A stretch of 64,000 nt of DNA from a candidate division WOR-3 bacterium (GCA_011052815.1 DRIG01000095.1:8943-72942); one strand, 5' to 3'. Counted from the first letter of the stretch, positions 11,122 to 38,633 are shown. Numbers and translations: made by a program. Notes: generated by a model from the letters alone, not told the origin.

Positions 11122-11123
11122 CC

Positions 11124-12979: not shown

Positions 12980-14604
12980 TAAAATGGGCTGAGCCTCACT
13001 ATCTTTCTTTATTGCTGTTAATCCCGCTTTTCATCATCGGAATCATCATTTATATGATGCGTAAAAAGAAAACCTTATCAAAATTCGCCGATGACCATAT
13101 TATACCGAGAATCACCGATACATTAAATAAAAAACTTCAGGTTTCAAAATATATTTTATTGATTCTGGCATTTGCTTTCCTGGTCATAAGCCTGGCACGG
13201 CCTAAATGGGGGGAAAAATTACAAATCTACAAAGGAAAGGGAATCGACGTCGTCATCGCACTTGATGCGTCAAAGAGTATGCTTGCTCAGGACATCAAAC
13301 CGGACAGATTGACCAGGGCGAAAACCGAAATCATCTCCCTGCTCGACAATCTCACCACAGACCGTGTCGGGATAACCGCATTTGCGGGTGAATGTTATAT
13401 TATGTGTCCACTAACGACAGACATTGAAGCTGCAAAACTGTTTTTAAATGTAATCTCTCCCGAAGTGATACCTAAACCGGGTACTGATCTCGAAAAGGCG
13501 ATTTCAGTTTCATGCTCGCTCTTCAACCCTGACGAAGAAACGCATAAAGCACTGATCCTCTTTACCGACGGTGACAATCTGGTGGGTGATCCGATGTCTG
13601 CCGTTGAAAAAATAAAAGATCAGGGAGTAAGACTTTTTACAATCGGTGTCGGAACAATCGAAGGCTCACCGGTTCCGGAAATAGATGAACAGGGTAATTT
13701 CAGTTCTTACAAGAAAGACAAGGATGATAAAATCGTTATGTCCCGATTGGCGGAAAGGCTTCTTATAATTCTTGCAAAGGCAACCGACGGCAGGTATTTC
13801 AGAACTGAGGGAGTCTATATAGATAGATTGGTCGGTGAACTTGACAAAATAAAGAAGAAGGAGATCGGCGGGGGTGAGTATGTGGAATATGAGGAACGTT
13901 ATCAATATTTCCTTACCATCGCATTCATCTTTCTCTTTCTCAATATCTTTCTCACGGATCGCAGAGGCAGGTGGTTTGAAAGGCTGTTCTTACTTTTTCT
14001 GTTTTCTTGCGGTTTGAATTTTGCATATGCCGATGTGGGAGCGAATATGCGGAAAGGAAATCACCTCTGTCGTAAAGGCAAATATGAAGATGCATTACAA
14101 CAATATCAAAAGGCACTGGTTCAGGAACCGGATAATCCGAAGATCCATTATAATATGGCGCGGGCATTGTATAAAACCGAAAAGTATGATGAAGCAATCA
14201 GTGAATTCGAATTAGGACTGCTTATGAAAGATGAAAAGTTCAAAGCAAACAGCTTCTATAATATCGGCAACTGCCAGTTCAGAAAGGGACAGCTCGATGC
14301 CGCAATCAACGCCTACAAAACAGCCCTCCTTTTAAATCCAGACGATATGGAAGCTAAACAGAACCTCGAATTCTGCATCAAATTGAAAGAATCCCTCAAG
14401 AACCAGCCGCAGAGTGATTCTCTCCAGCAGCAGCAACAACAACGGCAACAAAATCAACCGCAACCTCAGCCGCAGAAAAAGAAAGGTGAAATCAATAAAG
14501 AAGAAGCTGAACGGATTCTACAGGCCCTAAAAGATAAAGAAAAAGAGAATCTGAAAAAGTCAAAACAGAAAAGAAAGAAAGAAAATGTGGCGAAAGATTG
14601 GTAG
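12976..14604 (+). CDS. batB: BatB-like vWA + TPR protein. Start revised to the GTG at 12976, overlapping the batA stop.
   Basis: The N-terminus VIKWAEPHYL is paralogous to the BatA N-terminus. MIDAS LDASKSM, C-terminal TPRs, and a Q/PQ-rich tail. AGGAGG lies 6 nt before the GTG. Confidence 0.75.
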   Translation: MIKWAEPHYLSLLLLIPLFIIGIIIYMMRKKKTLSKFADDHIIPRITDTLNKKLQVSKYILLILAFAFLVISLARPKWGEKLQIYKGKGIDVVIALDASKSMLAQDIKPDRLTRAKTEIISLLDNLTTDRVGITAFAGECYIMCPLTTDIEAAKLFLNVISPEVIPKPGTDLEKAISVSCSLFNPDEETHKALILFTDGDNLVGDPMSAVEKIKDQGVRLFTIGVGTIEGSPVPEIDEQGNFSSYKKDKDDKIVMSRLAERLLIILAKATDGRYFRTEGVYIDRLVGELDKIKKKEIGGGEYVEYEERYQYFLTIAFIFLFLNIFLTDRRGRWFERLFLLFLFSCGLNFAYADVGANMRKGNHLCRKGKYEDALQQYQKALVQEPDNPKIHYNMARALYKTEKYDEAISEFELGLLMKDEKFKANSFYNIGNCQFRKGQLDAAINAYKTALLLNPDDMEAKQNLEFCIKLKESLKNQPQSDSLQQQQQQRQQNQPQPQPQKKKGEINKEEAERILQALKDKEKENLKKSKQKRKKENVAKDW

Positions 14605-22452: not shown

Positions 22453-24975
22453 TTATTGTAATTTTATTCTCATCCCCGCCTTAACGGCACGACGGGGACC
22501 GACATAAGAAGGATTCATTATGTAGTCCTTTGAACCCATAAGCCCGCCTTCTGACTCGCCTGAATCCCATGGTTCACCACTTCTTGGATAGACATAAAGA
22601 GGATTTTTATGATCTGTCAGATTCGTCCCTTTCACAAAAAATTCCAACACAGTTCCGCCTATTTTGAACCCCTGATATGCAATGGCGTCAAACGAATATT
22701 CCCATCCCATCCTTGCTGAATTCTGTTCGACAACAACACCTTCGCTGATATACGGAGTATACGGCAAACCACTGGCAGCGGTGACATTGAAACTCAATCC
22801 CCCTCCTTGTCCGAAGAGAATTTTAAGATTACTCGACAAGGTGTGTCGGCGGTCAAAATCAAGGAAATATTCTTTCAATCTTTCCGGCATCCCGGTGTAT
22901 ACATCATAAAATCCCTGCATTGCAAAAGAATGATTCCCCCGTGCCACCTGATAGGTATAATTGAAACTGAAACCGAAGTGTGAAACGACCTTCCGATTTA
23001 TCGTAACATCAATACCCTGAACACTGCCGAAATCATCATTTGTATATATGATGTAATCGTAAGGGAAACTTCTCACCTCGGTGGTGGCAAGTAAATTTTT
23101 GATATCTTTGAGGAAGAGTGTAATATCAACACCGTAGATCTGCTGAATCGCATATTTAATTCCAACTTCATATGCCGTGGTCCGTTGCGGTTCGATACGT
23201 GGATTACCGACCAATCCATAACGAGGTATACTTTCGGGGTGGGCGATGTAGTTACCGTTAAAATACATTATCTCATAAGGAGGCATCTGGAAGAAATACC
23301 CATAGGCAAAATGCAACATCGCATTATCCGTAATCGGATGGGACAAGCCGAAGCGCGGGGACAATTGATATTTAGGTTCCACCTCTGTGGACGGAGATGT
23401 GGGGTCTTCAATGTCCTCCCACATAACCGTCTTCGGGAAGCAGTAATCAAAACGTAAACCTAAATTCGCCACTAAAGAACGATGTTCGATTTTATCCTGC
23501 AGGAAAACCGCACCATCCATAGGAGTTCGTTGATAATTTTGATAAACCACCGCCCCTCTCGTAAAAAGTTGCTCACGTTTATCAAGAAAAAAATCATGGT
23601 GATTATGTTCGATCCCCCATTTCAGGTTGTGCACTCTGGCGAAATGAAGAGTGAAATCCATTTTAACGACATACTGCTTCGTCGTTGCGAATTGTCTGTA
23701 TATCGGATATCCGGAAACATAGAATTCAGAATAGTTGTCATATACCGGTTCAATAATGGTATCATCACTTAGACCGGGCACCGCTGTTTCGACGCTGTCT
23801 ACAAGGTATCCGACACGGAGGTTGTAGAAAAACGAACCAGCGGGGGCATGGTTGATTCCGACGATCGCCCGCAAATTCTTCCTGGTGGTTACAAGATAGT
23901 TTTCATAGATATATTTATAACGATGACTATAATTCTGTGTCTCTTCATTTACATATTGTCCGTCAATGAAAAGCTTAAGATTCCCGCCGAATTTCCTGGT
24001 TAATTTACCGTTCAGAGAATAAGAAGATTCGTAGCCGAACGGCAGATACGATTCCTCATTTGAATAGTTGCCGCTGAAGGAAAACTTTAAACGCCGGTCA
24101 AAGGGAATCGGCCCCATAACCGCGGCGTTTATCTCTCCAAGAAACGGAGCATCTAAATATTGAGGGTTATACTCGGAGATGTCCGATGAATCCCGATGGG
24201 CGTCATATGCGGTGCTGTCAAGGCTGTTCATCCAATCTTTTTTTCTGTATGGTGATGGATTGAGCATGAAAGAAGTATATTCAAGATAAGTAGAAATCCT
24301 CTCCCCGCCTTCCGGGGTTACGATGTTAACTACACCACTCATCACATTACCGTATTCGGCATTAAAGGTGCCTGACAGGAGCGACATTTCAGAAATAATA
24401 TTCTTATCAAAAATCGGACTGCTTCCCAGCAGTGGATTCGACACCTCAATACCGTCGATGTAATAAGCGAGCTCCCCGCTTCGTCCCCCACGTATATGAA
24501 GTTCACCGGCGCCGTCGGTCGTCACTCCTCCTTGAAGTACAATCACCTCCAGTGGTTTTTCAACGGGCAAGATATCCATTTCACTGCGTGTTATCCGTGC
24601 CTCTTTGGAAGTCATATCGACCTCAATAATCGGACGCTCCGCGACAACGACAACTGGATTCTCCATCTCAATCACAGTGGTCTGTAATTCGAAATTCAAC
24701 AAGGTGGTTCTATCCGTGTAGACCTGAACCTGCTGTTTAATCTCAGCTCGATATCCAATCATCGAAGCTTCAACCTCATAGGTACCCGGCGGAACATTCA
24801 GGATGAAATAATAACCGTTTTCATCAGTGGCACCTCCGATCCCCAGGTCAGGAATAAAGACATCAACACCGACAAGGGGTTCATTGGTTTCAGCATCCTT
24901 TACTGTTCCACTTATTTTACCTACGGTACCTCCGAAAAGAAAAAGCGGTAATAAGATAAAAATTATTTTGTTCAT
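22453..24975 (-). CDS. TonB-dependent-receptor-like outer-membrane protein with an N-terminal carboxypeptidase-regulatory-like domain. Start revised to the ATG at 24975.
   Basis: After a signal peptide (MNKIIFILLPLFLFGG): a CarbopepD_reg-like domain (GTVKDAETNEPLVGVDVFI...NVPPGTYEV), then a plug-like region (HIRGGRSGE...YYIDGI), then a long beta-barrel. An RBS precedes the internal ATG. Confidence 0.65.
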   Translation of the reverse strand: MNKIIFILLPLFLFGGTVGKISGTVKDAETNEPLVGVDVFIPDLGIGGATDENGYYFILNVPPGTYEVEASMIGYRAEIKQQVQVYTDRTTLLNFELQTTVIEMENPVVVVAERPIIEVDMTSKEARITRSEMDILPVEKPLEVIVLQGGVTTDGAGELHIRGGRSGELAYYIDGIEVSNPLLGSSPIFDKNIISEMSLLSGTFNAEYGNVMSGVVNIVTPEGGERISTYLEYTSFMLNPSPYRKKDWMNSLDSTAYDAHRDSSDISEYNPQYLDAPFLGEINAAVMGPIPFDRRLKFSFSGNYSNEESYLPFGYESSYSLNGKLTRKFGGNLKLFIDGQYVNEETQNYSHRYKYIYENYLVTTRKNLRAIVGINHAPAGSFFYNLRVGYLVDSVETAVPGLSDDTIIEPVYDNYSEFYVSGYPIYRQFATTKQYVVKMDFTLHFARVHNLKWGIEHNHHDFFLDKREQLFTRGAVVYQNYQRTPMDGAVFLQDKIEHRSLVANLGLRFDYCFPKTVMWEDIEDPTSPSTEVEPKYQLSPRFGLSHPITDNAMLHFAYGYFFQMPPYEIMYFNGNYIAHPESIPRYGLVGNPRIEPQRTTAYEVGIKYAIQQIYGVDITLFLKDIKNLLATTEVRSFPYDYIIYTNDDFGSVQGIDVTINRKVVSHFGFSFNYTYQVARGNHSFAMQGFYDVYTGMPERLKEYFLDFDRRHTLSSNLKILFGQGGGLSFNVTAASGLPYTPYISEGVVVEQNSARMGWEYSFDAIAYQGFKIGGTVLEFFVKGTNLTDHKNPLYVYPRSGEPWDSGESEGGLMGSKDYIMNPSYVGPRRAVKAGMRIKLQ

Positions 24976-25109
24976 AATGCTCCTTTGATCTTTGATATTA
25001 ATAAAACCGACACCACAAAGGTGCACGAACGGCCTTTGTATTCTGCAACACATTTTGTTTATTTTATAGGATTTCGTTATTTTTATGTTACCGAATAAAG
25101 CCAACCAGA

Positions 25110-27874: not shown

Positions 27875-27971
27875 GGGGTCAGATCTCGAAACTTGACAAC
27901 TTATCGATTCTTTTCATACAGGGAGCCGAAACGAAATTCGGGGAATTTGTCAAGTTTCGAGATCTGACCCC
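27875..27971. repeat. Hairpin element, copy 1: 25-bp perfect inverted arms (GGGGTCAGATCTCGAAACTTGACAA / TTGTCAAGTTTCGAGATCTGACCCC) around a 47-nt loop.
   Basis: The arms are identical to those of copy 2 at 33190-33324. The loop edges are alignable with copy 2. Confidence 0.75.
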
Positions 27972-27984
27972 ATGTGCCTTCTAA

Positions 27985-29331
27985 CTACCGGACTTTAACG
28001 ATCTTCTGTTTAACCCCATCATCCGTCTCGATAAAGTAAATACCCGGCTCAATTAAACTCGGATTCACCTCCCGCCCGGAAATATCGAACACCCTGCATC
28101 TCTTTCCTCGCGGTAATCGCAACGGTCCGCTGATGACAGTAGCCCCGTGGAAAAATGTCGGCTTCTTTGAAATCTCTTCTTCGACCCCCACATCTGGCTC
28201 AGTCTTGATGAGCCACATATCACCAAGGCCTGCGCCATAACTATAGGTTATTCCTGCGATGACATACCCGCTGTCCGCAGTCGGTGCCACGGAATAACCA
28301 TAGTCACCACTGCTACCGCCAATGGTCATAGACCAGATCAAATCTCCCTGGGTGTCGGTCTTGATAAGCCACACATCACCACTGCCTGCACCGAAACTCT
28401 CGGTACTACCGCCAATAATGTAACCACCGTCGGTAGCCAGTATTATTGAATAACCATAATCATCACTACCACCACCAAAGATCTTGGACCAGACCTGATT
28501 TCCATTACCATCGGTCTTAAGCAACCAGGCGTTCTTTCCGGAGTAAAGAGAAGTGCGAACCCCGGTGATGATGTACCCGCCGTCTGAAGTCTGTTGAACT
28601 GATCTACCTTCATCAAAGAAACTGAGACCAAAGGTCTTGGTCCAAAATGCATTTCCCTGGCCATCAGTACTGATGAGCCATAAATCCCCATTGCCTGCAC
28701 CATAACTGTGGGTTTCGCCGGTGATGACATACCCACCGCTGGTGGTCTGTATTACTGAATAACCACTCTCACTATTGTCACCGCCGAAAGTTCTATGCCA
28801 AAGCATATTTCCCTGTGCATCGGTCTTGATGAGCCAGAGATCAGAAGAACTACTGTAACTTTCAGTTGTTCCTGTAATGATATACCCGCCGTCCGCAGTC
28901 TGTGCCACAGAATAGCCATAGTCATAGCCGTAGGCGCCAAAGGTCTTGGACCAGATCAAATTCCCCTGTGCATCGGTCTTGATGAGCCAGAGATCACTTT
29001 CATCCACACTATAACTGCGGGTTCCACCGGTGATAACATATCCGCTGTCAGAGGTCTGTATCACTGAATAAGCATAGTCACTGCTGTCACCGCCGAATGT
29101 TCTGGACCAAACCTGATTTCCCTGTGCGTCGGTCTTGAGCAACCAGACGTCAAAAGCACCAGCGCCGTAACTGCTGGTATATCCGGCAATAATATATCCG
29201 CCGTCAGCGGTCAAGGCAACCGAACAGGCGCAGTCATTACTGCTTCCTCCAAAGGGTCTGGTCCAGGCTGTGTCCGGTGCCTGGGCAGATACGAACACCG
29301 CCAGTATCAACAACCCTATTATGTAACGCAT
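27985..29331 (-). CDS. Secreted beta-propeller-type repeat protein (about 8 x 48-aa repeats) with a T9SS C-terminal domain.
   Basis: Signal peptide. Repeats follow the consensus DGGYIITG.T.SYG.G..D.WLIKTD.QGN..WS.TFGG. Ends ...EPGIYFIETDDGVKQKIVKVR. Confidence 0.6.
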   Translation of the reverse strand: MRYIIGLLILAVFVSAQAPDTAWTRPFGGSSNDCACSVALTADGGYIIAGYTSSYGAGAFDVWLLKTDAQGNQVWSRTFGGDSSDYAYSVIQTSDSGYVITGGTRSYSVDESDLWLIKTDAQGNLIWSKTFGAYGYDYGYSVAQTADGGYIITGTTESYSSSSDLWLIKTDAQGNMLWHRTFGGDNSESGYSVIQTTSGGYVITGETHSYGAGNGDLWLISTDGQGNAFWTKTFGLSFFDEGRSVQQTSDGGYIITGVRTSLYSGKNAWLLKTDGNGNQVWSKIFGGGSDDYGYSIILATDGGYIIGGSTESFGAGSGDVWLIKTDTQGDLIWSMTIGGSSGDYGYSVAPTADSGYVIAGITYSYGAGLGDMWLIKTEPDVGVEEEISKKPTFFHGATVISGPLRLPRGKRCRVFDISGREVNPSLIEPGIYFIETDDGVKQKIVKVR

Positions 29332-29377: not shown

Positions 29378-29575
29378 CTATTTCAGTTTTCTTACAATAT
29401 CCTGGAAGCGAAAGCCACAGGAATAACAGTATTCGGCAAACGCAACCATTATCGATGCACCGCAATTCGGGCATGCTGAGATTAACTTTATCCCGCAATA
29501 AGGACAGATATTATCTCCTCTCTTTCCGAGATAATTGCATTTAGGACAGATCTTTCTTAAGTTCTTCTTCATCAT
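29378..29575 (-). CDS. Double zinc-ribbon mini-protein (65 aa).
   Basis: Four CxxC pairs (CPKC...CPYC, CPNC...CYSC). A TATAAT box sits 3 nt upstream of the ATG, which suggests a leaderless transcript. Confidence 0.55.
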   Translation of the reverse strand: MMKKNLRKICPKCNYLGKRGDNICPYCGIKLISACPNCGASIMVAFAEYCYSCGFRFQDIVRKLK

Positions 29576-29671
29576 AAAATTATAATCGTGGGCGTTAAAA
29601 AACCGTTAAAAAGAATGATTTACTTTAACTAAATGGAACTTAAAGACTTTTCCGTGATGTCTTAATACAGT

Positions 29672-32600
29672 TTATTCTTCATTGGTGATTCTTTTATAGA
29701 GATTGAAGGTCTCAGCAGCAGGAACGGTGTTTAATTCTTCTTTCAAACTTTTCTCCAGACGATGGAACTGTCTTATCGCACCGGTTCGGTTTCCCTGGTT
29801 ATATAAAGCCTCCATCATAATCCGACAGGCTTGTTCATCATTCGCATCAAAAGAAAGAAGTCGGCGTGCAAAAGAGATTGCCTTCTGCCACTCAATCCGT
29901 TCCATACACCTCATCGCCAGCCAGAATAAAATTTCTCTCATTCTTTCTTTCAACTCAAACTGTTTGTCAACAAGGGAACGGGTGTAAAATTCCGGTAAAA
30001 AATCTCCACGGTATAATGCAACCGCTTTATGCGCACGGTCTTCTGCAAGGTGAAGCTTCCCGTGCCGCTTGAAATTCCGCCACTCTTTAACAAGCGATTC
30101 AAACTCCCAGAAGTCCACTTTCAGCAGTTCACGGTTGAGAGAAAGAAAAGGGCCCTTTTGAATAACGATATTGCCGCCGATGACTTTGTTAAGCCGGGCG
30201 AGAATAACCCGAAAATTCGCCTGTGATTTCTTTTTTGCCATATCCGACCAGAGATATGAAATCAAAATTTCCCTGGTGATGCCACCGGTTCGGGGCTGGA
30301 CTAATAACAAAGCCAGCAGTTCCTGTGCTTTTCTGGATTGCCATTCATTTCTGGTGATCTCTTCCAAATCACCGGCTTTTTTTACGGATAAACCACCAAA
30401 GGTGGTTATCTCAACAGAATTTATTCGAAATTCCTTTAGACGCTCATGAATGAGGTGGACGGCATTGTTGAATTTTTTTACTCTAACTTGTTTATAGAGT
30501 TCAGAAATTCTCGGTGTTGCGCGCATTTCAAAAAGAAGTTCTAAACCCTGTAAAAATATCGCCTCACCGCGAGTACCGCCGATTGCAAGTCCGAACCTCA
30601 CAAATATATCAGTAAGCAGTAATACTTCACCGTTTGCGGACAGAATCTCTTTTGCTTTTTCAAAAAGTTTCAATGCCTCACTGCGACGTCCTTTTTTCAA
30701 AAGAACCTGTGCCTTCTGCGCCAAGGCCCTTGCGAACCGTGGATTGAAATGGTGTTTCTCCGCAAATGTCAGTGATTTATTGACGAATTTCAACGCGTGA
30801 TCTATTTCATTTTTCTTTAAATAAATCATACTTTTGTATATCAACATATCACAGCGAGAATTTATCTCAAGTTTCTCCCCATCTATCTGCTTCAAGGCTG
30901 TTTCCGCTCTCTCAACATCATTCAATTCTAAATACAGCCGTGCAAAACTCAACCGGGCGGTTAAGTCAAGTCTTTGATTGCCTATCCTCTTTGCCTTACT
31001 CTCTGCTTTTTCAAAAAATTCTTTAGCCCGCTGGTATTCGCCTTTAACCAAAAAACAGTAACCCATATAAAGCAAATCAACACCAACAAGCTGTTCCTTT
31101 TGCAGCAATTTTGCTCTCTTTAAAGATTCATAAAATCTAATCAATGCCGAATCCACTTTCCCCATCCTCATTTCGACAAGTCCCAGTTGAGAGTAAGAAT
31201 CACCGAGATAAAAAAGGAGATGGTAATCCTCCGCAATCTTTTTCGCCTGCAGCATAAAATCAAACGCTTTATTTAAATCTCCCTTTGACATGGAGATCGA
31301 CCCGAGATACAAAAACACCTTATACCGCGCCTCGGGCGCCTTATCCTGAGGTATTTCTACAGCCAACCTTTTGGCTTCATCCTCTGCTTCCTTTAGCAGA
31401 CCTTTTCTCATCAACAACAGACAATGTTCCGCCAGCAAAGTCCAGTAAAGTCTGTCATTTTTCTTCACCAATGTTATCGCTTTATTTATATCTTCCTCTG
31501 CCTTTGACAGATCCTGAAGCGACAGCCTCTTATGAAAGAGCAGTCGGTAATGTATTCCGGCGTCTTTTCTTAAATTATTAACTTCGAGTTCCAGCGCGTT
31601 TTTTTCAATATCATCGACCTGGAGGGTGCTTTTTCCTGAGAACCAGAAAAGTTGATTTGATAAAGATTTGATTTTCAGTTTTATCTTATCGGCCATCTCT
31701 TTTTTATCCGCTATTCTTTGCGCAACATTCAAGTATCGTTGTGCAGATAAATATTGATAGTCATCGAACAGTCTTCTGGCTGTATTGAATAGATAAACGG
31801 CGAGCCTTTCTGTTTCTTCAGCAGGTTTTATGTCTTTTATAAGATGAAAGGCTATTTCCTCGCTGCTTGCTCTATTTTTTTTCAGAATACGGGCAAGCCT
31901 TCTGTGCAGTCTGCGTCGTTGATCAGAATTCATCTTATTATAAAACAGGCTTCGGATCAGAGGATGGGTGAATTGTTTGGCATTACCGGAATCTTCTATC
32001 AAGCCTGATGCGGAGAGGACATTTAGAGACCTCAGGAATTGCTTGTCGGACAGTGAATTCAATAGTTTACGAAGTATTGGAAGTTCAAATATTTCACCGA
32101 TTACTGCCGCACCCCGAAGGAATTTCAATTCTGAATCGGATAATCTATAAATACGATAACCTATTATACTCTCCACTGTCTCAGGAACAGGAAAGCTTTC
32201 ATAATCTGTTTCGACGAACCAACGATCTTTGGTTTCATCATAGAATATTATGTTCTGACGAACGAATGTCTTAACAATCTCTTTTATGAACAAAGGATTA
32301 CCCCGCGTGACACTGAAAAGCCAGTGTGTAAAAGAACCGGCGAAGGTGCTTCCGAACATTTGATTCAGGATGGTCATTATTTCTCCCCCCGAAAGGCCAG
32401 GAAGATCAAGGTAAGAAATCAGATGTTCATTATTCAATTCATCTATGAATATTTTCAGAAGTTGATTATTATTTTGAGTAGTCATTGTTGCGACTATCAA
32501 TATGGACTTACCGACCATCCTTCTTATAATGTATTTCAGTAACCCGGTTGATTCATCGCCCATCCACTGGATATCGTCCAGAAGCAGAATCAGTGGTTTG

Positions 32601-33067
32601 GAATTGGATAAATTATCAAAAAATGTTTGAAAAGAATAAAAGAACAGACGATTATCAATGGGGTGTTCCAGAGATTGTATCTCTAATGGATAATACCTTT
32701 TCAATTCAGGAATGAGATGAATAAAATAGGGGGCGATCTCTGGATTCAAAAACTTTACAAACCACCATCGGCGGTTTTCCACTTTGAGTAGATGGTCTTT
32801 AACCATCTGAATAAACGGTGAAAAAGGTTTTGTTTCATCCTTCAACACCCTGCCGTATAGAATGTGAATATTGGAAGCATCAACTTCATCAATAAATCGT
32901 TCAAGAAAGGAAGTTTTTCCGACACCGACTTCACCGCGGACAAGGATAAATCGACCGTTATAGTTTAACGTCTCTTCCAGGTGACTCTTTAACCATTTCA
33001 GTTCTTTTTTTCTTCCGACGAACGGTTCATCGACACCTGTGGTTCTAAATAAAAATTCTTTCTTCAT
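29672..33067 (-). CDS. STAND-type AAA ATPase - TPR - C-terminal SARP (OmpR-like winged helix + BTAD) regulator, 1131 aa.
   Basis: Walker A GEVGVGKTS at the N-terminus, then a long TPR region. The C-terminal ~250 aa have an OmpR-type DNA-binding pattern followed by a BTAD-like helical domain. Confidence 0.7.
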   Translation of the reverse strand: MKKEFLFRTTGVDEPFVGRKKELKWLKSHLEETLNYNGRFILVRGEVGVGKTSFLERFIDEVDASNIHILYGRVLKDETKPFSPFIQMVKDHLLKVENRRWWFVKFLNPEIAPYFIHLIPELKRYYPLEIQSLEHPIDNRLFFYSFQTFFDNLSNSKPLILLLDDIQWMGDESTGLLKYIIRRMVGKSILIVATMTTQNNNQLLKIFIDELNNEHLISYLDLPGLSGGEIMTILNQMFGSTFAGSFTHWLFSVTRGNPLFIKEIVKTFVRQNIIFYDETKDRWFVETDYESFPVPETVESIIGYRIYRLSDSELKFLRGAAVIGEIFELPILRKLLNSLSDKQFLRSLNVLSASGLIEDSGNAKQFTHPLIRSLFYNKMNSDQRRRLHRRLARILKKNRASSEEIAFHLIKDIKPAEETERLAVYLFNTARRLFDDYQYLSAQRYLNVAQRIADKKEMADKIKLKIKSLSNQLFWFSGKSTLQVDDIEKNALELEVNNLRKDAGIHYRLLFHKRLSLQDLSKAEEDINKAITLVKKNDRLYWTLLAEHCLLLMRKGLLKEAEDEAKRLAVEIPQDKAPEARYKVFLYLGSISMSKGDLNKAFDFMLQAKKIAEDYHLLFYLGDSYSQLGLVEMRMGKVDSALIRFYESLKRAKLLQKEQLVGVDLLYMGYCFLVKGEYQRAKEFFEKAESKAKRIGNQRLDLTARLSFARLYLELNDVERAETALKQIDGEKLEINSRCDMLIYKSMIYLKKNEIDHALKFVNKSLTFAEKHHFNPRFARALAQKAQVLLKKGRRSEALKLFEKAKEILSANGEVLLLTDIFVRFGLAIGGTRGEAIFLQGLELLFEMRATPRISELYKQVRVKKFNNAVHLIHERLKEFRINSVEITTFGGLSVKKAGDLEEITRNEWQSRKAQELLALLLVQPRTGGITREILISYLWSDMAKKKSQANFRVILARLNKVIGGNIVIQKGPFLSLNRELLKVDFWEFESLVKEWRNFKRHGKLHLAEDRAHKAVALYRGDFLPEFYTRSLVDKQFELKERMREILFWLAMRCMERIEWQKAISFARRLLSFDANDEQACRIMMEALYNQGNRTGAIRQFHRLEKSLKEELNTVPAAETFNLYKRITNEE

Positions 33068-33152: not shown

Positions 33153-33180
33153 ATTATAAAGAAGCAGCAGTGATAGTCAA
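33153..33180 (-). promoter_or_regulatory. Sigma-70-like promoter for the STAND-SARP gene.
   Basis: On the minus strand: TTGACT (rc of 33175-33180), N16, TATAAT (rc of 33153-33158). It is 10 bp from hairpin element copy 2. Confidence 0.5.
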
Positions 33181-33189
33181 GGGCTTATA

Positions 33190-33324
33190 GGGGTCAGATC
33201 TCGAAACTTGACAAATTATCACTTCTCATTATAATAACTTCGTGGTCAAACCATTGAAAACAGGATTCCGATGTTTTTCACCACAACAAGATGAGGGAGT
33301 TGTCAAGTTTCGAGATCTGACCCC
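33190..33324. repeat. Hairpin element, copy 2: the same 25-bp perfect inverted arms around an 85-nt loop. Ends 2 nt before tRNA-Arg.
   Basis: Exact match to the copy 1 arms. It contains the tRNA-Arg promoter. Confidence 0.75.
33208..33235 (+). promoter_or_regulatory. Consensus promoter of tRNA-Arg(TCG), embedded in hairpin element copy 2.
   Basis: TTGACA 33208-33213 lies inside the left arm. After a 16-nt spacer, TATAAT 33230-33235 lies in the loop. The tRNA starts about 85 nt downstream. Confidence 0.55.
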
Positions 33325-33326
33325 AT

Positions 33327-33400
33327 GCGCCTGTAGCTCAATCGGATAGAGCGACGGACTTCGAATCCGTAGGCTGGGGGTTCAATTCCCTCCAGGCGCG
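33327..33400 (+). tRNA. tRNA-Arg (anticodon TCG)
   Basis: Acceptor GCGCCTG/CAGGCGC, anticodon loop CTTCGAA, T-loop GGTTCAATTCC. Confidence 0.85.
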
Positions 33401-33417
33401 TTTCTGCAACTCAATTT

Positions 33418-36400
33418 TTATTTCTCTTGCCGCTCAAAGAGCGTGTAGAGGACCGGAATAAAGACCAGCGTTAAAAAGGTTGAAAGGACAAGACCGCCGA
33501 TAACCGACCGCGCCATCGGTGCGCGCAGTTCATTACCCGCACCCATTGCCAGTGCCATTGGAATAAGCCCAAATGTCGTGGTGAATGCGGTCATAAGAAT
33601 CGGCCTGAGCCGCACCCGACCGGCCTCGACCACCGCCTTAACCAGCGGCATTCCATGCTCCCGTCGCAACTGGTTTGTGTAAGTGATATAAACAATCGCA
33701 TTATTCACCACAATACCACCGAGCAACAACACTCCCATCAGACTCTGCATATTAATCGTGGTGCCGGTGAAGAAGAGCATCCAGAGTACTCCGATAATCG
33801 CCAGGGGAATTGTAAATATTATTATAAACGGCTCTTTGAAAGACTCGAACTGTCCGACCATTATCATATAAACGAGCACAAAAGCGAGAAGGATGACAAG
33901 CCCGAGGTCGCGGAATGTCGACTGCATCTCTTCAAAACCGCCGCTCAGCTCGATCTGGAAATCAGCCGGTTTTTCAATACTGTTAATTATTTTCTGAACA
34001 TCACGGCCCACACTTCCAGGGTCACGGCCCTCAACATCACCGCTGATCGTCACCACCCGATAATTGTCTTCGTGTTCGATCTCCACGGGGCCTACTGCAA
34101 TTGTATCTTTTATAAAGTTCTTGATCGGCACCTCACCGACCGGCGTTGTTATGGTCATCATCTGTATTTTCTTCAAGTCATCCCGATATCTTTTGTCGAA
34201 TTGTATCTTTATGTCGTACTCCTCACCCTGCTGGCGGAATTGACTGGCGACCACTCCCTCAATGCGCGCCCGTATCGCACTGCCGATCTGATACGGAGTC
34301 AAACCAAAGTTCGCCGCTTTCTGACGGTCGATTATCAGTCTGAATTCAGGTTTTCCTTCTTTTAAGTTTGATTCAAGATTGACCAACCCCTTCACAGATT
34401 TCAACCTTTCCATCAGAGTATCAGACAACAACTTCGCCTCAGCACGGTCATAACCGAAGATCTTGATGATGATGGGTTTACCGCCGAACATCTGCTGAAA
34501 TTCATTCTGTGCAAAGCTCACTTTCAAACCGGGGATGTTGCTGATCTTGGGCCGCAGGTCCCGCTGGATATCTTTGATCGAACGTTTACGCTTTTCCCGA
34601 TAAACAAGTTCCAGCCAGATCTGGGCGGCGTGGGGACCGGGATTACTGGCGAAAAGGCTTGTAAATCCGCCTTCTCCACTGCCGATCGAGGTCGAAAGAA
34701 TCTCCAGTTCAGGTACTTCTTTGAAAATAATTTGTTCAAGTTTACGCACGGCACTATCAGTGACCCAGAGATTCATTCCCACCGGCATTTCAGCCTTTAT
34801 TATGATCTCACCCCGATCGGTCTCAGGACTCAATTCTGTACCGATAAATGGAATAAGCACTAAACTGATAAGAAATACACTGATCGTTCCAAAGATAACA
34901 GTCTTACGGTGACCGAGCGCCCACTGGATAATACGTGCATAGAGATTTTCTATCCTCTCATAGAATCCGCGAACGCGCGTACTGAAACCTTTTTTCTGTT
35001 TTTTAATATCGATCGTTCCGAAACGGACCGAGAGCATGGGGATGATGGTTAAGGCGACGATAAGAGAAGAACCCAGGGCAAAAGTCACGGTCAAGGCAAG
35101 GGGTTTAAAAAAGACTGAAGCGAATCCTTTAACCAGAAGCAACGGCAAAAAGACCGCAACCGTGGTCAGGGTCGAGGCGGTGATCGCGGCACTCACTTCA
35201 CGCGCCCCTTTACTCGCTGCTGTCTTGGGTTCGACGCCCTTTTCTTTCTGGCGGAAAATCGCTTCGAAAACAACGATTGCGGAATCAAGCACCATGCCGA
35301 TGGCGATCGTCAATCCTCCCAGAGATATAATATTCAAACTCATCTTAAAAAGATACATAAAGAACAGGGCGAAGAAGACCGCGATCGGAATCGCCACCGC
35401 CATATAGATCGTCGAACGGAAGTTCGCCAGAAACAGAAAAAGTATGATCACGGCGAGGATTGCTCCGAGAATCAAAGTATTGGCTGTACTCTTCACCGAA
35501 CGCATGATATAATCAGCCTGATTGAACATAACATCAATCTTAACACCGGGAGGCAATTCTTTTTCGATCTTTTCAAGTTCTTTCACCGCTCTGGTGCCGA
35601 CATTTACTGAATTTGCATCACTCCGTTTCTGCACCATACCCCATATTGATTGAACACCATTGGTACGGGCGATCGATTTTATCTCAGCCGCCCGGGATTC
35701 AACCGTTGCAACCTGTGATAAAAGTATGGGAACCCCGTTATTGTTCCCCACCACAGTATTTCGAATTTCATCGAGGTCAGAGTACTGACCGGTCGTCCGC
35801 AGGATATAGACTTTTTTGCCGGTCTCCACACTGCCGATTGGATAATTGATATTATGTGCCTGAATCGTCCGCATAATCTGTTCCGGAGTTATACCGGTGC
35901 CTTTTAACTTCATCGGGTCAAGAACAATCTGAATCTCACGCTGGGTCCCGCCCATTGCATAAGACGCCGCGACGCCGCCGACCCGCTGGATGCGGTCCGC
36001 AATATCATTGGCGATCGCTTCGAGTTCCAGGGGATCGATATCACCCGAGATATTATACATCACCACAGGTTGCTGGGATATATCAAATTTGAAAATCAAG
36101 GGATAATCCGCGCCGTCCGGTAAATACGGTAAAACAAAACCGAGTTTATCCCTTACATCATTAGATGCTGCATCGACATCTGTGCCCCAATCAAATTGGA
36201 GGAAGATATTGGAAATATTCTCTGAGGTCTTCGAAGTTATTTTATCGAGATTATTGACCGTTCCGAGAGTCTTCTCCAGAGGTTCGGTGATCTGTGTTTC
36301 AATCTCTTCGGGTCCGGCACCCGGATAGGTCGTCAGCACGATCATCATCGGAAAAGTAATATTGGGAAAGAGATCGACCGGTAAATTCATTACGGAAATC

Positions 36401-36480
36401 GCCCCGAAAATAATAACTCCCAAAAACACCATTGAAACAGCAAGCGGTCTTTTTATTGAAAGATCCGTTAAATTCATCAC
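33418..36480 (-). CDS. RND-family efflux transporter permease (AcrB-like).
   Basis: 1020 aa, 12-TM RND architecture with two large periplasmic loops and characteristic motifs. Confidence 0.9.
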   Translation of the reverse strand: MMNLTDLSIKRPLAVSMVFLGVIIFGAISVMNLPVDLFPNITFPMMIVLTTYPGAGPEEIETQITEPLEKTLGTVNNLDKITSKTSENISNIFLQFDWGTDVDAASNDVRDKLGFVLPYLPDGADYPLIFKFDISQQPVVMYNISGDIDPLELEAIANDIADRIQRVGGVAASYAMGGTQREIQIVLDPMKLKGTGITPEQIMRTIQAHNINYPIGSVETGKKVYILRTTGQYSDLDEIRNTVVGNNNGVPILLSQVATVESRAAEIKSIARTNGVQSIWGMVQKRSDANSVNVGTRAVKELEKIEKELPPGVKIDVMFNQADYIMRSVKSTANTLILGAILAVIILFLFLANFRSTIYMAVAIPIAVFFALFFMYLFKMSLNIISLGGLTIAIGMVLDSAIVVFEAIFRQKEKGVEPKTAASKGAREVSAAITASTLTTVAVFLPLLLVKGFASVFFKPLALTVTFALGSSLIVALTIIPMLSVRFGTIDIKKQKKGFSTRVRGFYERIENLYARIIQWALGHRKTVIFGTISVFLISLVLIPFIGTELSPETDRGEIIIKAEMPVGMNLWVTDSAVRKLEQIIFKEVPELEILSTSIGSGEGGFTSLFASNPGPHAAQIWLELVYREKRKRSIKDIQRDLRPKISNIPGLKVSFAQNEFQQMFGGKPIIIKIFGYDRAEAKLLSDTLMERLKSVKGLVNLESNLKEGKPEFRLIIDRQKAANFGLTPYQIGSAIRARIEGVVASQFRQQGEEYDIKIQFDKRYRDDLKKIQMMTITTPVGEVPIKNFIKDTIAVGPVEIEHEDNYRVVTISGDVEGRDPGSVGRDVQKIINSIEKPADFQIELSGGFEEMQSTFRDLGLVILLAFVLVYMIMVGQFESFKEPFIIIFTIPLAIIGVLWMLFFTGTTINMQSLMGVLLLGGIVVNNAIVYITYTNQLRREHGMPLVKAVVEAGRVRLRPILMTAFTTTFGLIPMALAMGAGNELRAPMARSVIGGLVLSTFLTLVFIPVLYTLFERQEK

Positions 36481-37361
36481 TCACCCCTTACGATTGGTGC
36501 CACACTCTCTCCGCCCGCCAGCCGTTCCTGTCCTACAATAATAACCGCTTCACCCGGTTTGACTCCGGAGATGATTTCAACGTTCTCATCACCGACCAAA
36601 CCGATCTTGACGTCCCGACGTTCTGCCTTGTCATTTGACACCACAAAGAGATAGTCATCGAGCAGGGCGTCGCGCGGCACAGCGATTACATCTTTCTTTT
36701 CGTCGAGGGTAATGGTAATCCGCGCCGTCATCCCGGGTTTCAACAGCTTTTTACTGTTCTTAACAACCGCTTTCACCGCAACGGTCCGGGTTCTGGGGTC
36801 GATCACCGGACTGATCTCTGATATCTTACCGCTGAATACATCATCAGGAAACGGATCCACCCTTATCTCCACCCTGCTTCCCTTGAAGATAGAACCTATC
36901 AGGTCTTCTGCAATGTTAAAAACCACCTTGACCGTCGAGAATTCAACAACCATCGCCACCGGTGTCTGCGGGGTCACCATGGACCCGACATTGACGAGAA
37001 TTCGGGCGACATTTCCGGAAATCGGAGCTTTAATATACCCTTCTTCATAATTAAAACCGACCGTTTCGTTCCTCAACGCCATAAGGTGGGTGTTTTTGGC
37101 GACATAACTTCCTTCTTTGACATAAATTCTGGTGATCCTGCCCATGGTCTCTGGAAAGACCTGTGCTGTTTTATCGGCATTGATTGTGCCAAGGAGTTCG
37201 TAAGTGTTTTTGACATCGCCTCTCTTCACACGAACAACCTCGACCGCGATCTCCGCCACCTCCTCACTTGCCCGGGAGCCGCTCTTCAATACCGCGATTC
37301 TGATTATGAAACCGATAATTAAAACAGCAATTATTATCAATGTAATAAAAACTTTGCGCAT
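36477..37361 (-). CDS. RND efflux periplasmic adaptor (membrane fusion protein).
   Basis: HlyD/AcrA-like lipoyl and beta-barrel pattern. Overlaps the RND start. Confidence 0.85.
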   Translation of the reverse strand: MRKVFITLIIIAVLIIGFIIRIAVLKSGSRASEEVAEIAVEVVRVKRGDVKNTYELLGTINADKTAQVFPETMGRITRIYVKEGSYVAKNTHLMALRNETVGFNYEEGYIKAPISGNVARILVNVGSMVTPQTPVAMVVEFSTVKVVFNIAEDLIGSIFKGSRVEIRVDPFPDDVFSGKISEISPVIDPRTRTVAVKAVVKNSKKLLKPGMTARITITLDEKKDVIAVPRDALLDDYLFVVSNDKAERRDVKIGLVGDENVEIISGVKPGEAVIIVGQERLAGGESVAPIVRGE

Positions 37362-38633
37362 CTATTCCTCCTTACCGATTGCTTTCTGAATCTCAGCCTT
37401 GGAGCTATAATAATCCTTCAATGCTGAGAGGTAATTTGTTCGTGCCTGCATTGCGGCAAGCTGGGCATCCATATATTCAAGATTTGTCGCAAGCCCGTTC
37501 TTGTAACGTTTTTCAATAATTTCAAATGCCTTTTCCGCCTGACTTACATTCTTTTCGGCGGTGAGGAGTGCCTCTTTTGCCGCAACAAAATTCAAATATG
37601 CTTTTTTGACTTCAAGCCTTATCGCCTTCTTCAAATTTTCCAGTGCAAGCTCAGCCTCCCGCAATTGCAACGCCGCATCTCTTTGCTGGTAGAAATTTTT
37701 AAAACCGGTGAATATCGGAACCTGGAAACCGATGTTGAATATAACATTAGAACCCCATTCGCCGCTCGTAAAACTGAATGGTTTTTTACGCTCATAGGTC
37801 GCTCCGGCGACGACCACGGGAAGATTGGAGCGACGCATAATCGCTTCGTTCAACCGTGCGATTTCCTTTACTTTCATCAAATTTTTGAGCTCTATTCGAT
37901 TAAGGAGTGCTTCGTCGACCAACTCCTCAAGAACAAAATCTTCATCAACCATCTTCAGCTCTCCGGAAATAGTGAAGTCGGCTGCCAAATCCATACCCAG
38001 CAGCATCTTGAATCCCTCACGGGCGAGATTTAATCCGTGTTCGGCCTTGATGACCCGGGGTTTTAAATTTGAAACCTGAACCCGCGCCCGCAGTAGATCA
38101 AACTGCGATACCAGCCCTGCTTTATAGCGTTCTTCAACAGCCCGGGCATGGCGCTTAAGCTGAGCAAGGCTCTTTTGTGAAACCTGAACCATGTCTTCGA
38201 GCACCAGAAGACCGTAAAAAGCATCGCTCACAGCACAACGGAGTTCTTGCTTTTTACGAACCAGTTTGAGCTCGGCGATCTCTTTCCCCAGATCAGAAAT
38301 CTTATAAGCATTATAAATCTTACCCCAGGCAAAGAGCACCTGCTGCAGGGAAACCTGCAGACTGTAGTTTTCATTCTGTCCCATTGGTATCGGCATACTG
38401 TCAAGCTGAAACACCGGGACATCGGTCAGATAAGCGTATCCGCCGGTTGCGGAGATGCTGGGATAAAACGCCGAGATTGCTTTATTGACACCGGTCTGTG
38501 CTCTTGCATACTCGAGCTCAAGCTGCTCGATTTCAGGATTATTCTCCAATGCATAATCAACCGCCTGAACCAAAGTGAAATGGAGGGTATCACCACCACT
38601 GATACTTATAAGCAAAATTAAAATTACTGACAT
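37362..38633 (-). CDS. TolC-like outer-membrane efflux protein.
   Basis: Signal peptide and two OEP repeats of coiled-coil/beta structure. Abuts the adaptor gene. Confidence 0.8.
   Translation of the reverse strand: MSVILILLISISGGDTLHFTLVQAVDYALENNPEIEQLELEYARAQTGVNKAISAFYPSISATGGYAYLTDVPVFQLDSMPIPMGQNENYSLQVSLQQVLFAWGKIYNAYKISDLGKEIAELKLVRKKQELRCAVSDAFYGLLVLEDMVQVSQKSLAQLKRHARAVEERYKAGLVSQFDLLRARVQVSNLKPRVIKAEHGLNLAREGFKMLLGMDLAADFTISGELKMVDEDFVLEELVDEALLNRIELKNLMKVKEIARLNEAIMRRSNLPVVVAGATYERKKPFSFTSGEWGSNVIFNIGFQVPIFTGFKNFYQQRDAALQLREAELALENLKKAIRLEVKKAYLNFVAAKEALLTAEKNVSQAEKAFEIIEKRYKNGLATNLEYMDAQLAAMQARTNYLSALKDYYSSKAEIQKAIGKEE

Follow-up and report, generated by a model that had tools for sequence, protein, structure and literature searches.

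A MalT-like STAND regulator with a C-terminal SARP module, linked to a double zinc-ribbon gene and variable secreted-protein genes in WOR-3 and related candidate phyla

Introduction

The described classes of SARP regulators (small, medium, large and SARP-LAL) all carry the SARP module at the N-terminus (PMC10972967). A gene from a candidate division WOR-3 bacterium (GCA_011052815.1, DRIG01000095.1:8943-72942; this stretch of 64,000 nucleotides is referred to as the window, and coordinates are counted from its first letter) seems to have it at the opposite end, behind an ATPase and a TPR array. An initial annotation, made from the sequence alone, read this gene together with a neighbouring zinc-ribbon gene and a gene for an exported protein as a possible self-contained sensory and regulatory module. 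The locus thus raises the question whether the reversed domain order is genuine and conserved, and which genes such a regulator might control.

Domain architecture of the regulator

All three genes lie on the minus strand at the positions originally assigned to them. The open reading frame of the regulator, as defined by its translation and Pfam matches, spans 29672-33067 and encodes 1131 amino acids; the protein matches P0001, encoded in a candidate division WOR-3 MAG, at 100% identity, and its AF2 model has a pLDDT of 85.3 and a pTM of 0.70.

Residues 1-420 (31808-33067, minus strand) constitute the nucleotide-binding oligomerisation module, as judged by the AAA_16 match, motifs and fold match, and comprise a P-loop NBD, a helical domain bearing the 'GxP' motif GNPLF and a winged-helix domain that includes His368. 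Pfam assigns AAA_16 to residues 15-191 (E about 1e-19 to 1.5e-20) along with ATPase_2 and AAA_22, while NB-ARC is not found. The Walker A sequence GEVGVGKTS, on which the ATPase had been proposed, occupies residues 45-53, and the NTPase motifs are GxxGxGK[TS] (45-52), DD (164-165), GNPL (256-259) and FxHPL (366-370). Across 22 orthologues Gly45, Gly48, Gly50 and Lys51 of Walker A, Asp165 of Walker B and the GNPL motif are invariant, Asp164 is nearly so and His368 is retained in 21 of them. In the ATTR motif, the window copy has Thr in place of the near-invariant Arg196, and its ATP cycle may therefore be atypical.

The arm and TPR sensor array follow at residues 421-879 (30431-31807, minus strand), which in the AF2 model are entirely helical hairpins, about 11 in number, with a pLDDT of ~90. 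TPR_MalT matches residues 665-809 (E about 8e-16 to 5.9e-17), accompanied by many other TPR models of Pfam. The top fold match of the NOD-arm-TPR part is the STAND-TPR protein 6mfv_A (E 1.2e-15), and the TPR part also matches MalT (8bob_C, TM 0.62) and MalT domain III (1hz4), so that both the long TPR array and the resemblance to MalT-like STAND regulators noted at the outset are confirmed.

The SARP module occupies residues 880-1131 of 1131. Its first half, residues 884-984 (30116-30418, minus strand), is a divergent OmpR-type winged-helix DNA-binding domain, identified by sequence and structure alignment to AfsR, with the recognition helix at approximately residues 945-963. Pfam Trans_reg_C gives no match to the regulator even at E<=10. 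The NCBIfam AfsR and BagI/FevR models cover residues 913-1128, and phmmer against the PDB aligns AfsR 70-282 to residues 912-1127 (8hvr_I, E 7.6e-5). The AF2 model shows a layout of β-sheet, three helices and β-hairpin at residues 885-984, and superposes on the whole AfsR SARP domain 8k60_I/J with a TM of 0.77 and an rmsd of 3.5 Å for 250 columns (TM 0.76-0.77 over 8k60 and 8hvr); EmbR (2fez) superposes as well. The second half, residues 984-1127 (29687-30118, minus strand), is the BTAD (Pfam, 1.3e-21), which spans positions 1-145 of the 146 of the model and is fully conserved. GerE is not found in the regulator by Pfam; the C-terminus is a SARP module instead. Domain and structure searches hence agree with the initial annotation on a C-terminal DNA-binding/BTAD module, and the regulator is confirmed as a MalT-like STAND NTPase followed by a TPR sensor and a C-terminal SARP module. 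Because the latter forms the C-terminus, the domain order is the reverse of that in AfsR.

A STAND NTPase with a long TPR sensor would also suit a conflict system, antiviral (Avs-like) or other, whose TPR array detects a phage protein, and a faint P-loop similarity to BrxC/BrxD is detectable (Pfam 0.0024; PADLOC BrxD 0.0017). Such a role is nevertheless highly improbable. The regulator ends in a DNA-binding module of transcription-activator type as its output domain, and Pfam finds neither a nuclease, protease, TIR or SIR2 nor any other effector domain in it, in line with the initial annotation, which had seen no fused nuclease or protease. PADLOC gives no fitting family beyond the P-loop-level BrxD match, and in four phyla the locus keeps a stable position beside secreted-protein genes instead of lying in variable defence islands.

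Distribution of the reversed domain order

About 23 orthologues of the regulator were found, in WOR-3, Fermentibacterota, Cloacimonadota and Latescibacteria. Within the top 120 homologues the order NTPase-SARP is confined to the 23 orthologues, whereas the other 49 proteins with both domains show SARP-NTPase; the fetched loci split alike (19 versus 40). The reversal relative to AfsR that had been proposed from a single protein is thereby upheld for the whole orthologous group. More distant, unstudied relatives with a C-terminal SARP module occur in Desulfobacterales and Anaerolineae, and the reversed architecture is consequently not unique to this clade. Some of these distant proteins are annotated as MalT by some sources.

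Conserved linkage to a double zinc-ribbon gene

The gene next to the regulator (29378-29575, minus strand) encodes a double zinc-ribbon protein of 65 amino acids, or of 64 if translation starts from the second ATG at 29572. Its four CxxC pairs, already recognized in the initial annotation, belong to a Pfam DZR match (PF12773, 4.4e-12), and zinc binding is predicted. All eight cysteines are invariant in 34 members of the family, the 55-residue core is very strongly conserved, and the AF2 model has a pLDDT of 83.6. The family is sharply bounded, with 37 representatives scoring 84-138 bits and the next match 44 bits.

Of 17 distinct orthologous loci, 16 contain the zinc-ribbon gene, and in 15 it is the next gene downstream of the regulator, in the same orientation. 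Reciprocally, both look-ups that started from the zinc-ribbon protein (L172 from Latescibacteria, and L174) led to a gene for an AAA_16-TPR-BTAD protein of 1125/1126 amino acids directly upstream.

Variable secreted proteins and flanking hairpins

The third gene (27985-29331, minus strand) starts 46 nt past the zinc-ribbon gene, with GGAGG as ribosome-binding site, and encodes a secreted, SBBP-like β-propeller protein of 448 amino acids with a putative, shortened T9SS-type C-terminal domain, assigned by NCBIfam and by comparison with its orthologue in locus L001. The earlier description as a β-propeller T9SS cargo holds for the visible signal peptide and the SBBP-like propeller repeats (NCBIfam, 3e-14), but at a cut-off as loose as E<=10 Pfam finds no Por_Secre_tail in the window copy. 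Orthologues of the protein do match Por_Secre_tail, among them the L001 cargo, which is 44% identical and to whose C-terminus that of the window copy aligns, with ~28 amino acids missing. In the orthologous loci the zinc-ribbon gene is followed by variable secreted proteins, mostly T9SS cargo.

The hairpins that were thought to bracket the cassette are real, with perfect 25-nt inverted arms at 27875-27971 and 33190-33324, but they are specific to the genome of the window and not part of the conserved module.

The linkage of the regulator with zinc-ribbon and cargo genes is strongly conserved across four candidate phyla, and the conserved core consists of the regulator, the promoter box described below and the zinc-ribbon gene, while the cargo varies. 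This module with its reversed STAND-SARP regulator recurs in several uncultured phyla and was previously undescribed. The earlier idea of a self-contained regulatory module for the cargo gains independent in silico support from a conserved SARP-box-like promoter, which is placed exactly between the regulator gene and the zinc-ribbon and cargo genes.

A predicted SARP box in the zinc-ribbon promoter

Approximately 60 nt past the stop codon of the regulator lies a predicted SARP box of two 11-nt direct repeats, TTTTTAACGG / TTTTTTAACGC (29592-29613, minus strand), which recurs at this place in every orthologous locus and is the sole match in the 64-kb window. Its TTAACG hexamers are located at 29604-29609 and 29593-29598. 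A -10 element, TATAAT (29579-29584, minus strand), is predicted from the sequence and the promoter alignment 7-8 nt past the second repeat and 3 or 6 nt before the two candidate ATGs. The 21 distinct promoters of orthologous loci share the arrangement (T/G)TAACGn-TTTT-(T/G)TAACGn-7 nt-TATAAT/TATACT, with the repeats 11 nt apart and ~6 nt from TATAAT to the start codon, whereas the flanks are not conserved. Strict matches number 17 in 0.26 Mb of orthologous loci versus 0 in 1.45 Mb of non-orthologous control loci.

For comparison, the afs box bound by AfsR consists of two 11-bp direct repeats centred at -29.5 (PMC10936776), and in SARP promoters the downstream site is positioned 8 bp upstream of the -10 element (PMC11301090). 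The box in the window is estimated to span about -41 to -20. A site with the geometry of a SARP operator hence adjoins the regulator gene, and we infer that this predicted operator is bound by the regulator.

The box promoters have no recognisable -35 hexamer at a spacing of 16-18 nt, as is typical of activator-dependent promoters, and their -10 elements are of the housekeeping and not of the ECF type. The overlap of the box with the -35 and spacer region would equally be a classical position for a repressor, so that the SARP module might occlude the -35 region until a signal relieves repression. The missing -35 hexamer and the fully conserved BTAD, which in AfsR contacts sigma region 4 and the polymerase core (PMC10936776), make this quite improbable, as does the fact that the characterised SARPs with such a geometry are all activators (PMC10972967).

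The short spacing between TATAAT and start codon suggests that the mRNA is mostly leaderless, given the predicted -10 element and transcription start; in L006 and L172 a leader with a Shine-Dalgarno sequence is found instead. Both repeats change from T to G together in one clade, where position 955 in the recognition helix is Thr versus Ala, Ile, Leu or Val elsewhere. Since the G-box loci form one clade, this covariation represents a single evolutionary event.

Just 50-170 nt separate the genes, and in the window no sequence between regulator and zinc-ribbon gene looks convincingly like a terminator. One might thus envisage a single read-through operon from the promoter of the regulator, with the repeat being an RNA element, an alternative-sigma promoter or a binding site for some other factor and the true targets of the regulator, whose occupancy of the box is itself a prediction, located elsewhere. 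This is unlikely: the 11-nt period, the repeat number and the distance to a TATAAT-like -10 element of housekeeping type are exactly those of SARP operators, and the box is absent from the control DNA. Moreover, the box + zinc-ribbon + cargo unit is duplicated in L001 and L170, while the regulator is not, and boxes precede these inverted or duplicated target units away from the 3' end of the regulator gene (L001 11213-11229 and 13999-14015, opposite strand; L170 11562). These detached boxes exclude a role tied to the end of the regulator transcript. In L007 the box stands directly before the cargo gene. From this arrangement and the duplicated units it follows that the box travels with the target genes. 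The short gap between regulator and zinc-ribbon gene would also permit co-transcription by read-through.

The regulator gene itself has a predicted sigma-70-like promoter, TTGACT-16-TATAAT (33153-33180, minus strand; 11/12 in a consensus scan), ~86 nt upstream of its ATG, and a like arrangement, TTGACTAT...TATAATCT, is found upstream of its closest orthologue in L001. No TTAACG box is present upstream of the regulator gene, and direct autoregulation is accordingly not indicated.

Comparison with known systems

AfsR-afsS of Streptomyces coelicolor resembles the present system in several respects. Both regulators unite a SARP module with a STAND NTPase and a TPR array, and in each case the gene immediately 3' of the regulator gene is small (63 amino acids for AfsS, 65 here). 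The geometry predicted for the promoter here, with two 11-bp repeats over the -35 position and ~8 bp to the -10 element, is also that of the afsS promoter. In AfsR, a large SARP of the order SARP-NOD-TPR, the SARP module is however N-terminal and the NOD is NB-ARC, whereas the NTPase here is of the AAA_16/MalT type; the repeat sequence here is TTAACG, and AfsS is unrelated to the Cys8 double zinc-ribbon protein. The hosts and regulons differ likewise, with Actinomycetota and antibiotic clusters on the one side and WOR-3 and related candidate phyla with secreted/T9SS proteins on the other.

MalT and the LAL regulators (NOD-arm-TPR-like sensor-LuxR HTH) share the order of STAND NTPase, arm and TPR, and C-terminal DNA-binding output, and the TPR_MalT match and the MalT fold matches accord with this. 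Their output is a LuxR/GerE helix-turn-helix and MalT boxes lie upstream, in contrast to the SARP module (winged helix and BTAD) and the predicted operator of 11-nt direct repeats inside the core promoter found here. SARP-LAL regulators such as PimR, FilR and SanG also join a SARP module to an AAA_16/LAL-type ATPase half, but they are actinobacterial, pathway-specific for antibiotic clusters, and carry the SARP module N-terminally; their binding sites are heptameric direct repeats separated by 4-nt spacers (PMC10972967). In overall structure the NOD-arm-TPR part is matched best by PH0952 of Pyrococcus horikoshii (STAND with TPR sensor, PDB code 6MFV), which is archaeal and lacks a SARP module. 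The GxP motif and the winged-helix/ADP-clamp layout suggest a double autoinhibition as in PH0952 (PMC6468293).

The zinc-ribbon protein is comparable to the small C(P)XCG zinc-finger proteins of archaea, which likewise have ~60 amino acids and CPxC-type knuckles. Its nearest structures are the N-terminal tandem ribbons of TniQ (8bd5_Q, TMq 0.69; 7n6i_A), at an E-value of 0.013, which is not significant. A sequence relationship to either group is not detectable.

Proposed mechanism

The regulator is probably a signal-gated activator of MalT type acting on the zinc-ribbon and cargo operon, as an architectural analogue of afsR-afsS. The arm and TPR sensor would keep its STAND NTPase (NBD, helical and winged-helix domains) in a closed, ADP-bound state. 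A ligand or protein bound to the TPR array would then trigger ATP binding and opening or multimerisation, in analogy to the ATP-dependent, inducer-triggered multimerisation of MalT, and thereby free the C-terminal SARP modules. Two of these would sit side by side on the TTAACG direct repeats, the upstream repeat overlapping the -35 position and the downstream one lying ~8 nt from TATAAT, and would recruit the housekeeping RNA polymerase or adapt it, in the way known from AfsR and the afsS promoter. The resulting, mostly leaderless transcript would encode the zinc-ribbon protein first and then at least one surface or secreted protein exported by Sec/T9SS, in the window the SBBP propeller. The zinc-ribbon protein is presumably a cytoplasmic, constant member of the regulon, whose most likely task, in the manner of AfsS, is to act back on the STAND protein or to pass the signal on to other targets.

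It might instead be more than a regulon member and belong to the STAND protein as an obligate subunit, or modulate it directly, docking on the NTPase or TPR array as an anti-activator with negative feedback, as a co-activator or as a redox/zinc-sensing input. MalT has negative modulators of its own in MalY, MalK and Aes. We consider this a serious but minority possibility. The near-universal and reciprocal linkage to the regulator is consistent with it, as is the retention of the 55-residue core with its eight cysteines while the cargo varies. Other relatives have zinc ribbons fused N-terminally to an AAA_16 NTPase or kinase (P0046, P0056, P0065, P0070, P0076 and P0088), and the TniQ ribbons, the best structural analogues, dock on the AAA+ ATPase TnsC. 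On the other hand, the TniQ match is not significant and the fused ribbons are generic DZR domains of a different subfamily. In L007 the 4 kb examined contain no zinc-ribbon gene, yet regulator, box and cargo are kept, and in L001 and L170 the zinc-ribbon gene is duplicated together with box and cargo but not with the regulator, one copy decaying in each locus. A speculative and rather doubtful extension is that the zinc-ribbon protein, by docking on the NTPase or TPR array, closes a feedback loop or senses redox state or zinc, and that together with the STAND-SARP switch it times the deployment of T9SS surface proteins.

Implications

Should this doubtful extension hold as well, regulator and zinc-ribbon protein would together form a two-part regulatory system not recognised before in FCB-related candidate phyla. 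Activation of the 'sigma-adaptation' type would then extend beyond Actinomycetota, by means of a C-terminal SARP module on a MalT-like switch, and the C-terminal-SARP STAND proteins of Desulfobacterales and Anaerolineae would constitute a large unstudied class of regulators.

Domain architecture and fold of the regulator

The genes for the regulator (29672-33067, 1131 aa), the zinc-ribbon protein (29378-29575, 65 aa) and the exported cargo protein (27985-29331, 448 aa) lie consecutively on the minus strand; upstream of all three lies an RND efflux operon (AcrB, MFP, OEP; 33418-38633), and a tRNA-Arg(tcg) is encoded on the plus strand at 33326-33401. A hypothetical protein from a candidate division WOR-3 MAG matches the regulator at 100% identity. 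Pfam assigns AAA_16 to residues 15-191 (1e-19), TPR_MalT and many further TPR models to about 590-810, and BTAD to 984-1127 (1e-21); the Trans_reg_C winged helix is unmatched in the regulator by Pfam, E values up to 10 included. The presence of a winged helix is concluded from several other lines of evidence. The NCBIfam AfsR and BagI/FevR models align to residues 913-1128, and AfsR PDB chains match by sequence over their residues 70-282 (E 7.6e-5), the alignment thus starting inside the AfsR DNA-binding domain. In an AlphaFold2 model derived from 22 orthologues (pLDDT 85.3, pTM 0.70), residues 885-984 form a beta-sheet, three helices and a beta-hairpin, and the last 250 residues superpose on the SARP domain of AfsR within transcription-initiation complexes (8k60_I/J, 8hvr_I) with a TM score of 0.76-0.77 and an rmsd of about 3.5 Å. 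The same C-terminal residues also superpose on EmbR.

The N-terminal two thirds match the fold of the STAND-TPR protein PH0952 (6mfv_A, E 1.2e-15) as well as MalT (8bob_C) and MalT domain III (1hz4), which together with the TPR_MalT hit bears out the initial annotation of a MalT-like STAND regulator. Walker A, Walker B, the GxP motif of the helical domain (GNPLF, 256-260) and the histidine of the winged-helix domain (FxHPL, H368) are invariant or near-invariant in the 22 orthologues. A sensor-1-like arginine, Arg196 of an ATTR motif (Arg in 20 of the 22), is replaced by threonine in the window regulator (codon 32480-32482), a substitution which, judged by sequence, may alter ATP sensing or hydrolysis. 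An antiviral, Avs-type reading is rejected, as the regulator carries no effector domain and the PADLOC match is confined to the P-loop level.

Permuted order of the NTPase and SARP modules

SARPs are usually regarded as antibiotic regulators of actinobacteria whose DNA-binding module is N-terminal. A review distinguishes only small, medium, large and SARP-LAL classes, each with the SARP module at the N-terminus (PMC10972967), and full-text literature searches returned no description of a MalT-like protein bearing a SARP or BTAD at its C-terminus. Using local HMMs of the NTPase region (residues 1-420) and the SARP region (880-1131), built from the orthologue alignment, the order NTPase-SARP was found in 23 of the 120 best database homologues, all of them full-length orthologues of 33-65% identity, compared with 49 showing the AfsR order SARP-NTPase and 48 without a SARP module. 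Among the ORFs of about 170 fetched loci the corresponding figures are 19 NTPase-SARP versus 40 SARP-NTPase. The assumption that all AAA_16 and BTAD proteins share the order of the regulator is thus false, since the AfsR order prevails in most; tblastn ranges such as "16-1127" represent segments joined out of order. HMM searches, the AfsR superposition and the 23 orthologues agree with the initial proposal of a C-terminal SARP in reverse of the AfsR order.

When the last 252 residues were searched exhaustively with phmmer against 1.84 billion representatives, the most similar SARP domains proved to be mostly C-terminal as well. The NTPase-SARP order is detectable in 29 further representatives, and another 25 or so proteins, roughly 1050-1130 aa long, carry a C-terminal SARP preceded by TPRs and by a P-loop of divergent type (AAA_16 or NPHP3_N). 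These distant relatives, from Desulfobacterales, other Deltaproteobacteria and Anaerolineae, are named "MalT/DNA-binding SARP" or "BTAD domain-containing putative transcriptional regulator" by their sources. Because the C-terminal position extends to them, the permuted architecture is a real lineage, fairly broad and unstudied, and no one-off.

The zinc-ribbon family and its linkage to the regulator

Orthologous loci were scanned for small cysteine-rich ORFs. A zinc-ribbon gene of 65-98 aa with four CxxC pairs, the pattern noted initially in the small neighbour, occurs in 16 of 17 distinct loci, with the near-identical core KKICPxCNYLG...CPYCG..LIS.CP.CGAPI.VAFAEYCY.CGFRF, and in 15 of the 17 it lies directly downstream of the regulator on the same strand; several copies had previously been uncalled as genes. 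Three loci deviate: L001 has its zinc-ribbon gene inverted jointly with the cargo, L007 lacks a zinc-ribbon gene and has a cargo gene after the regulator, and L170 contains two paralogues with a cargo gene behind each. A single-sequence search with the zinc-ribbon protein retrieved only itself, so that a profile search was needed; this delineates a sharply bounded family of 37 representatives scoring 84-138 bits, the next match reaching 44 bits, with hosts among WOR-3, Fermentibacteria, Aegiribacteria and Latescibacteria. Two look-ups from zinc-ribbon proteins, one of them from Latescibacteria, both encountered a gene for a 1125/1126-aa AAA_16-TPR-BTAD protein directly upstream, and therefore the linkage, initially proposed for testing as a co-occurrence across genomes, is reciprocal.

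Decaying copies are seen as well. In L001, a 236-aa ORF (13266-13976, minus strand) has a zinc-ribbon-like start with several cysteines lost, a T9SS-like tail at its end and its own box at 13999-14015, and one of the two copies in L170 (9562-9849, plus strand) retains only three CxxC pairs. The unit of box, zinc-ribbon gene and cargo apparently duplicates as a block in these two loci. Near the module L172 encodes, a few genes away, a further large protein of kinase-AAA_16-TPR type (13374-14198), and L004 a 918-aa ORF (10734-13490) assigned to the AAA_16-TPR class from its sequence alone, which hints at a clustering of STAND signalling genes.

No signal peptide is present in the zinc-ribbon protein. 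Structurally it weakly resembles the tandem ribbons of TniQ (E 0.013, TMq 0.65-0.69). TniQ docks onto the AAA+ ATPase TnsC. Among the homologous proteins P0046, P0065, P0076, P0088, P0056 and P0070 there are kinase-AAA_16-TPR proteins that begin with a double zinc ribbon and LuxR-type regulators with a single ribbon directly before AAA_16. The ribbons fused to other AAA_16 proteins are generic; their occurrence in several AAA_16-TPR STAND proteins indicates a recurrent association with this NTPase class.

A predicted SARP-type promoter

Every zinc-ribbon gene is preceded by the element (T/G)TAACGn-TTTT-(T/G)TAACGn, followed after 7 nt by TATAAT or TATACT, with usually 5-7 nt, about 6 nt, between this -10 and the start codon. 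In the window, the repeats are located by sequence at 29604-29609 and 29593-29598, the predicted -10 at 29579-29584 and the candidate ATGs at 29575 and 29572, all on the minus strand. The 21 distinct promoters of this form have unconserved flanking sequence. The box is present once as a full match in the 64-kb window, and strict matches number 17 in 0.26 Mb of orthologous loci versus none in 1.45 Mb of non-orthologous control loci. The box likewise stands ahead of the target units that are inverted or duplicated in L001 and L170, and in L007 it stands immediately before the cargo. One clade has GTAACG in both repeats, and its regulators have threonine at position 955 of the recognition helix instead of A/I/L/V; as the G-box loci form a single clade, this covariation represents a single evolutionary event. 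Uniqueness in the window, lack of control matches, presence at rearranged targets and the clade-specific T/G switch show that the box is non-random.

Documented SARP operators consist of two 11-bp direct repeats, the upstream one overlapping the -35 region and the downstream one about 8 bp from the -10 (PMC10936776, PMC11301090), and the AfsR box at afsS is centred at -29.5 (PMC10936776). The arrangement of the predicted box is that of these operators, and binding of the regulator to it is predicted; if the first nucleotide of the ATG is the transcription start, the box extends from about -41 to -20. Since the -10 keeps a constant distance of about 6 nt from the start codon, the mRNAs would be leaderless in most loci; L006 and L172 have a Shine-Dalgarno leader instead. 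An ECF-sigma promoter as the explanation for GTAACG is rejected, as the -10 is TATAAT-like and lies 8 or 19 nt from the repeats, the wrong distance for such a promoter in both cases. Autoregulation through the box is likewise discounted: no regulator gene has a box upstream and these upstream regions are unconserved. In the window, the regulator has a predicted near-consensus sigma-70 promoter (33180->33153, minus strand).

A weak box-like site, GTAACATAAAAATAACG, at 25075-25091 (minus strand) is followed by TAAAAT and, 7 nt on, by the ATG of an 883-aa ORF (22453-25104). It could be a second, degenerate target; owing to one mismatch and an A-tract where a T-tract is expected, it is judged probably a chance occurrence.

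Palindromic elements and cargo genes

The regulator, zinc-ribbon and cargo genes are bracketed by two palindromes (27875-27971 and 33190-33324) with perfect, identical 25-nt arms, GGGGTCAGATCTCGAAACTTGACAA, and loops of 47 and 85 nt, the only such long inverted repeats in the 64 kb. The hairpin-bracketed cassette described initially is real in this sense but confined to this genome: the arms, with only two occurrences in the window, are missing from all of the roughly 170 related loci, and the orthologous modules are not flanked by inverted repeats of a comparable kind. The hairpins are therefore rejected as part of the system and regarded as genome-specific; they look like REP/MITE-type elements just upstream of promoters. 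A sigma-70-like promoter follows each on the minus strand (33180->33153 and 27862->27835), and inversion or deletion of the cassette through recombination between the palindromes is conceivable in principle. Within the left arm of the upstream palindrome lies a perfect TTGACA-16-TATAAT promoter (33208-33235, plus strand) directed towards the tRNA-Arg(tcg) gene, which begins 1 nt past the right arm, so that the palindrome seems to supply the tRNA promoter.

The genes following the zinc-ribbon gene vary between loci, yet nearly all encode signal-peptide proteins, among them SBBP propellers, LVIVD propellers and unknown proteins, most with Por_Secre_tail or FlgD_ig sorting domains. The window cargo, initially described as T9SS cargo, is an orthologue (44% identity) of a Por_Secre_tail-positive protein of L001, but its own T9SS-type sorting domain (27985-28150) is about 28 residues shorter and below Pfam detection; what is left may be a sorting signal that is either minimal or in decay.

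Proposed mechanism and implications

Most likely, the regulator is a signal-opened activator of the zinc-ribbon/cargo promoter. As a MalT-like STAND switch it would be autoinhibited in the ADP state by its TPR sensor and arm, like PH0952 and MalT (PMC6468293). A signal would open it, its C-terminal SARP modules would then bind next to each other, one on each repeat, and, in the manner of AfsR at afsS, activate the housekeeping polymerase on this promoter without a -35, and the zinc-ribbon micro-protein and exported, mostly T9SS, proteins would be switched on. The likeness to afsR-afsS extends to a large regulator followed at once by a gene of roughly 65 aa with a SARP box, although the small protein there is unrelated. 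Since the zinc-ribbon protein lacks a signal peptide and is the part of the regulon that stays constant, it most plausibly acts in feedback or as a relay, as tentatively suggested by the TniQ similarity and the generic ribbons fused to AAA_16 proteins.

The original observation is confirmed and its interpretation supported and extended; the regulator appears to be a STAND transcription factor with a SARP output. In uncultured members of WOR-3, Fermentibacterota, Cloacimonadota and Latescibacteria, for which we know of no genetics, a MalT-type ATP switch carries a SARP module at its output end. With the probable operator and regulon readable from DNA, the regulator-operator-target prediction is unusually complete in silico for uncultured phyla and of a rare, directly testable kind. 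In the zinc-ribbon micro-protein, which is conserved, there is a defined candidate small-protein partner for a STAND NTPase, the natural domain permutation could serve to test STAND gating of a DNA-binding output, and the regulator would be a first candidate for control of T9SS cargo expression outside Bacteroidota.
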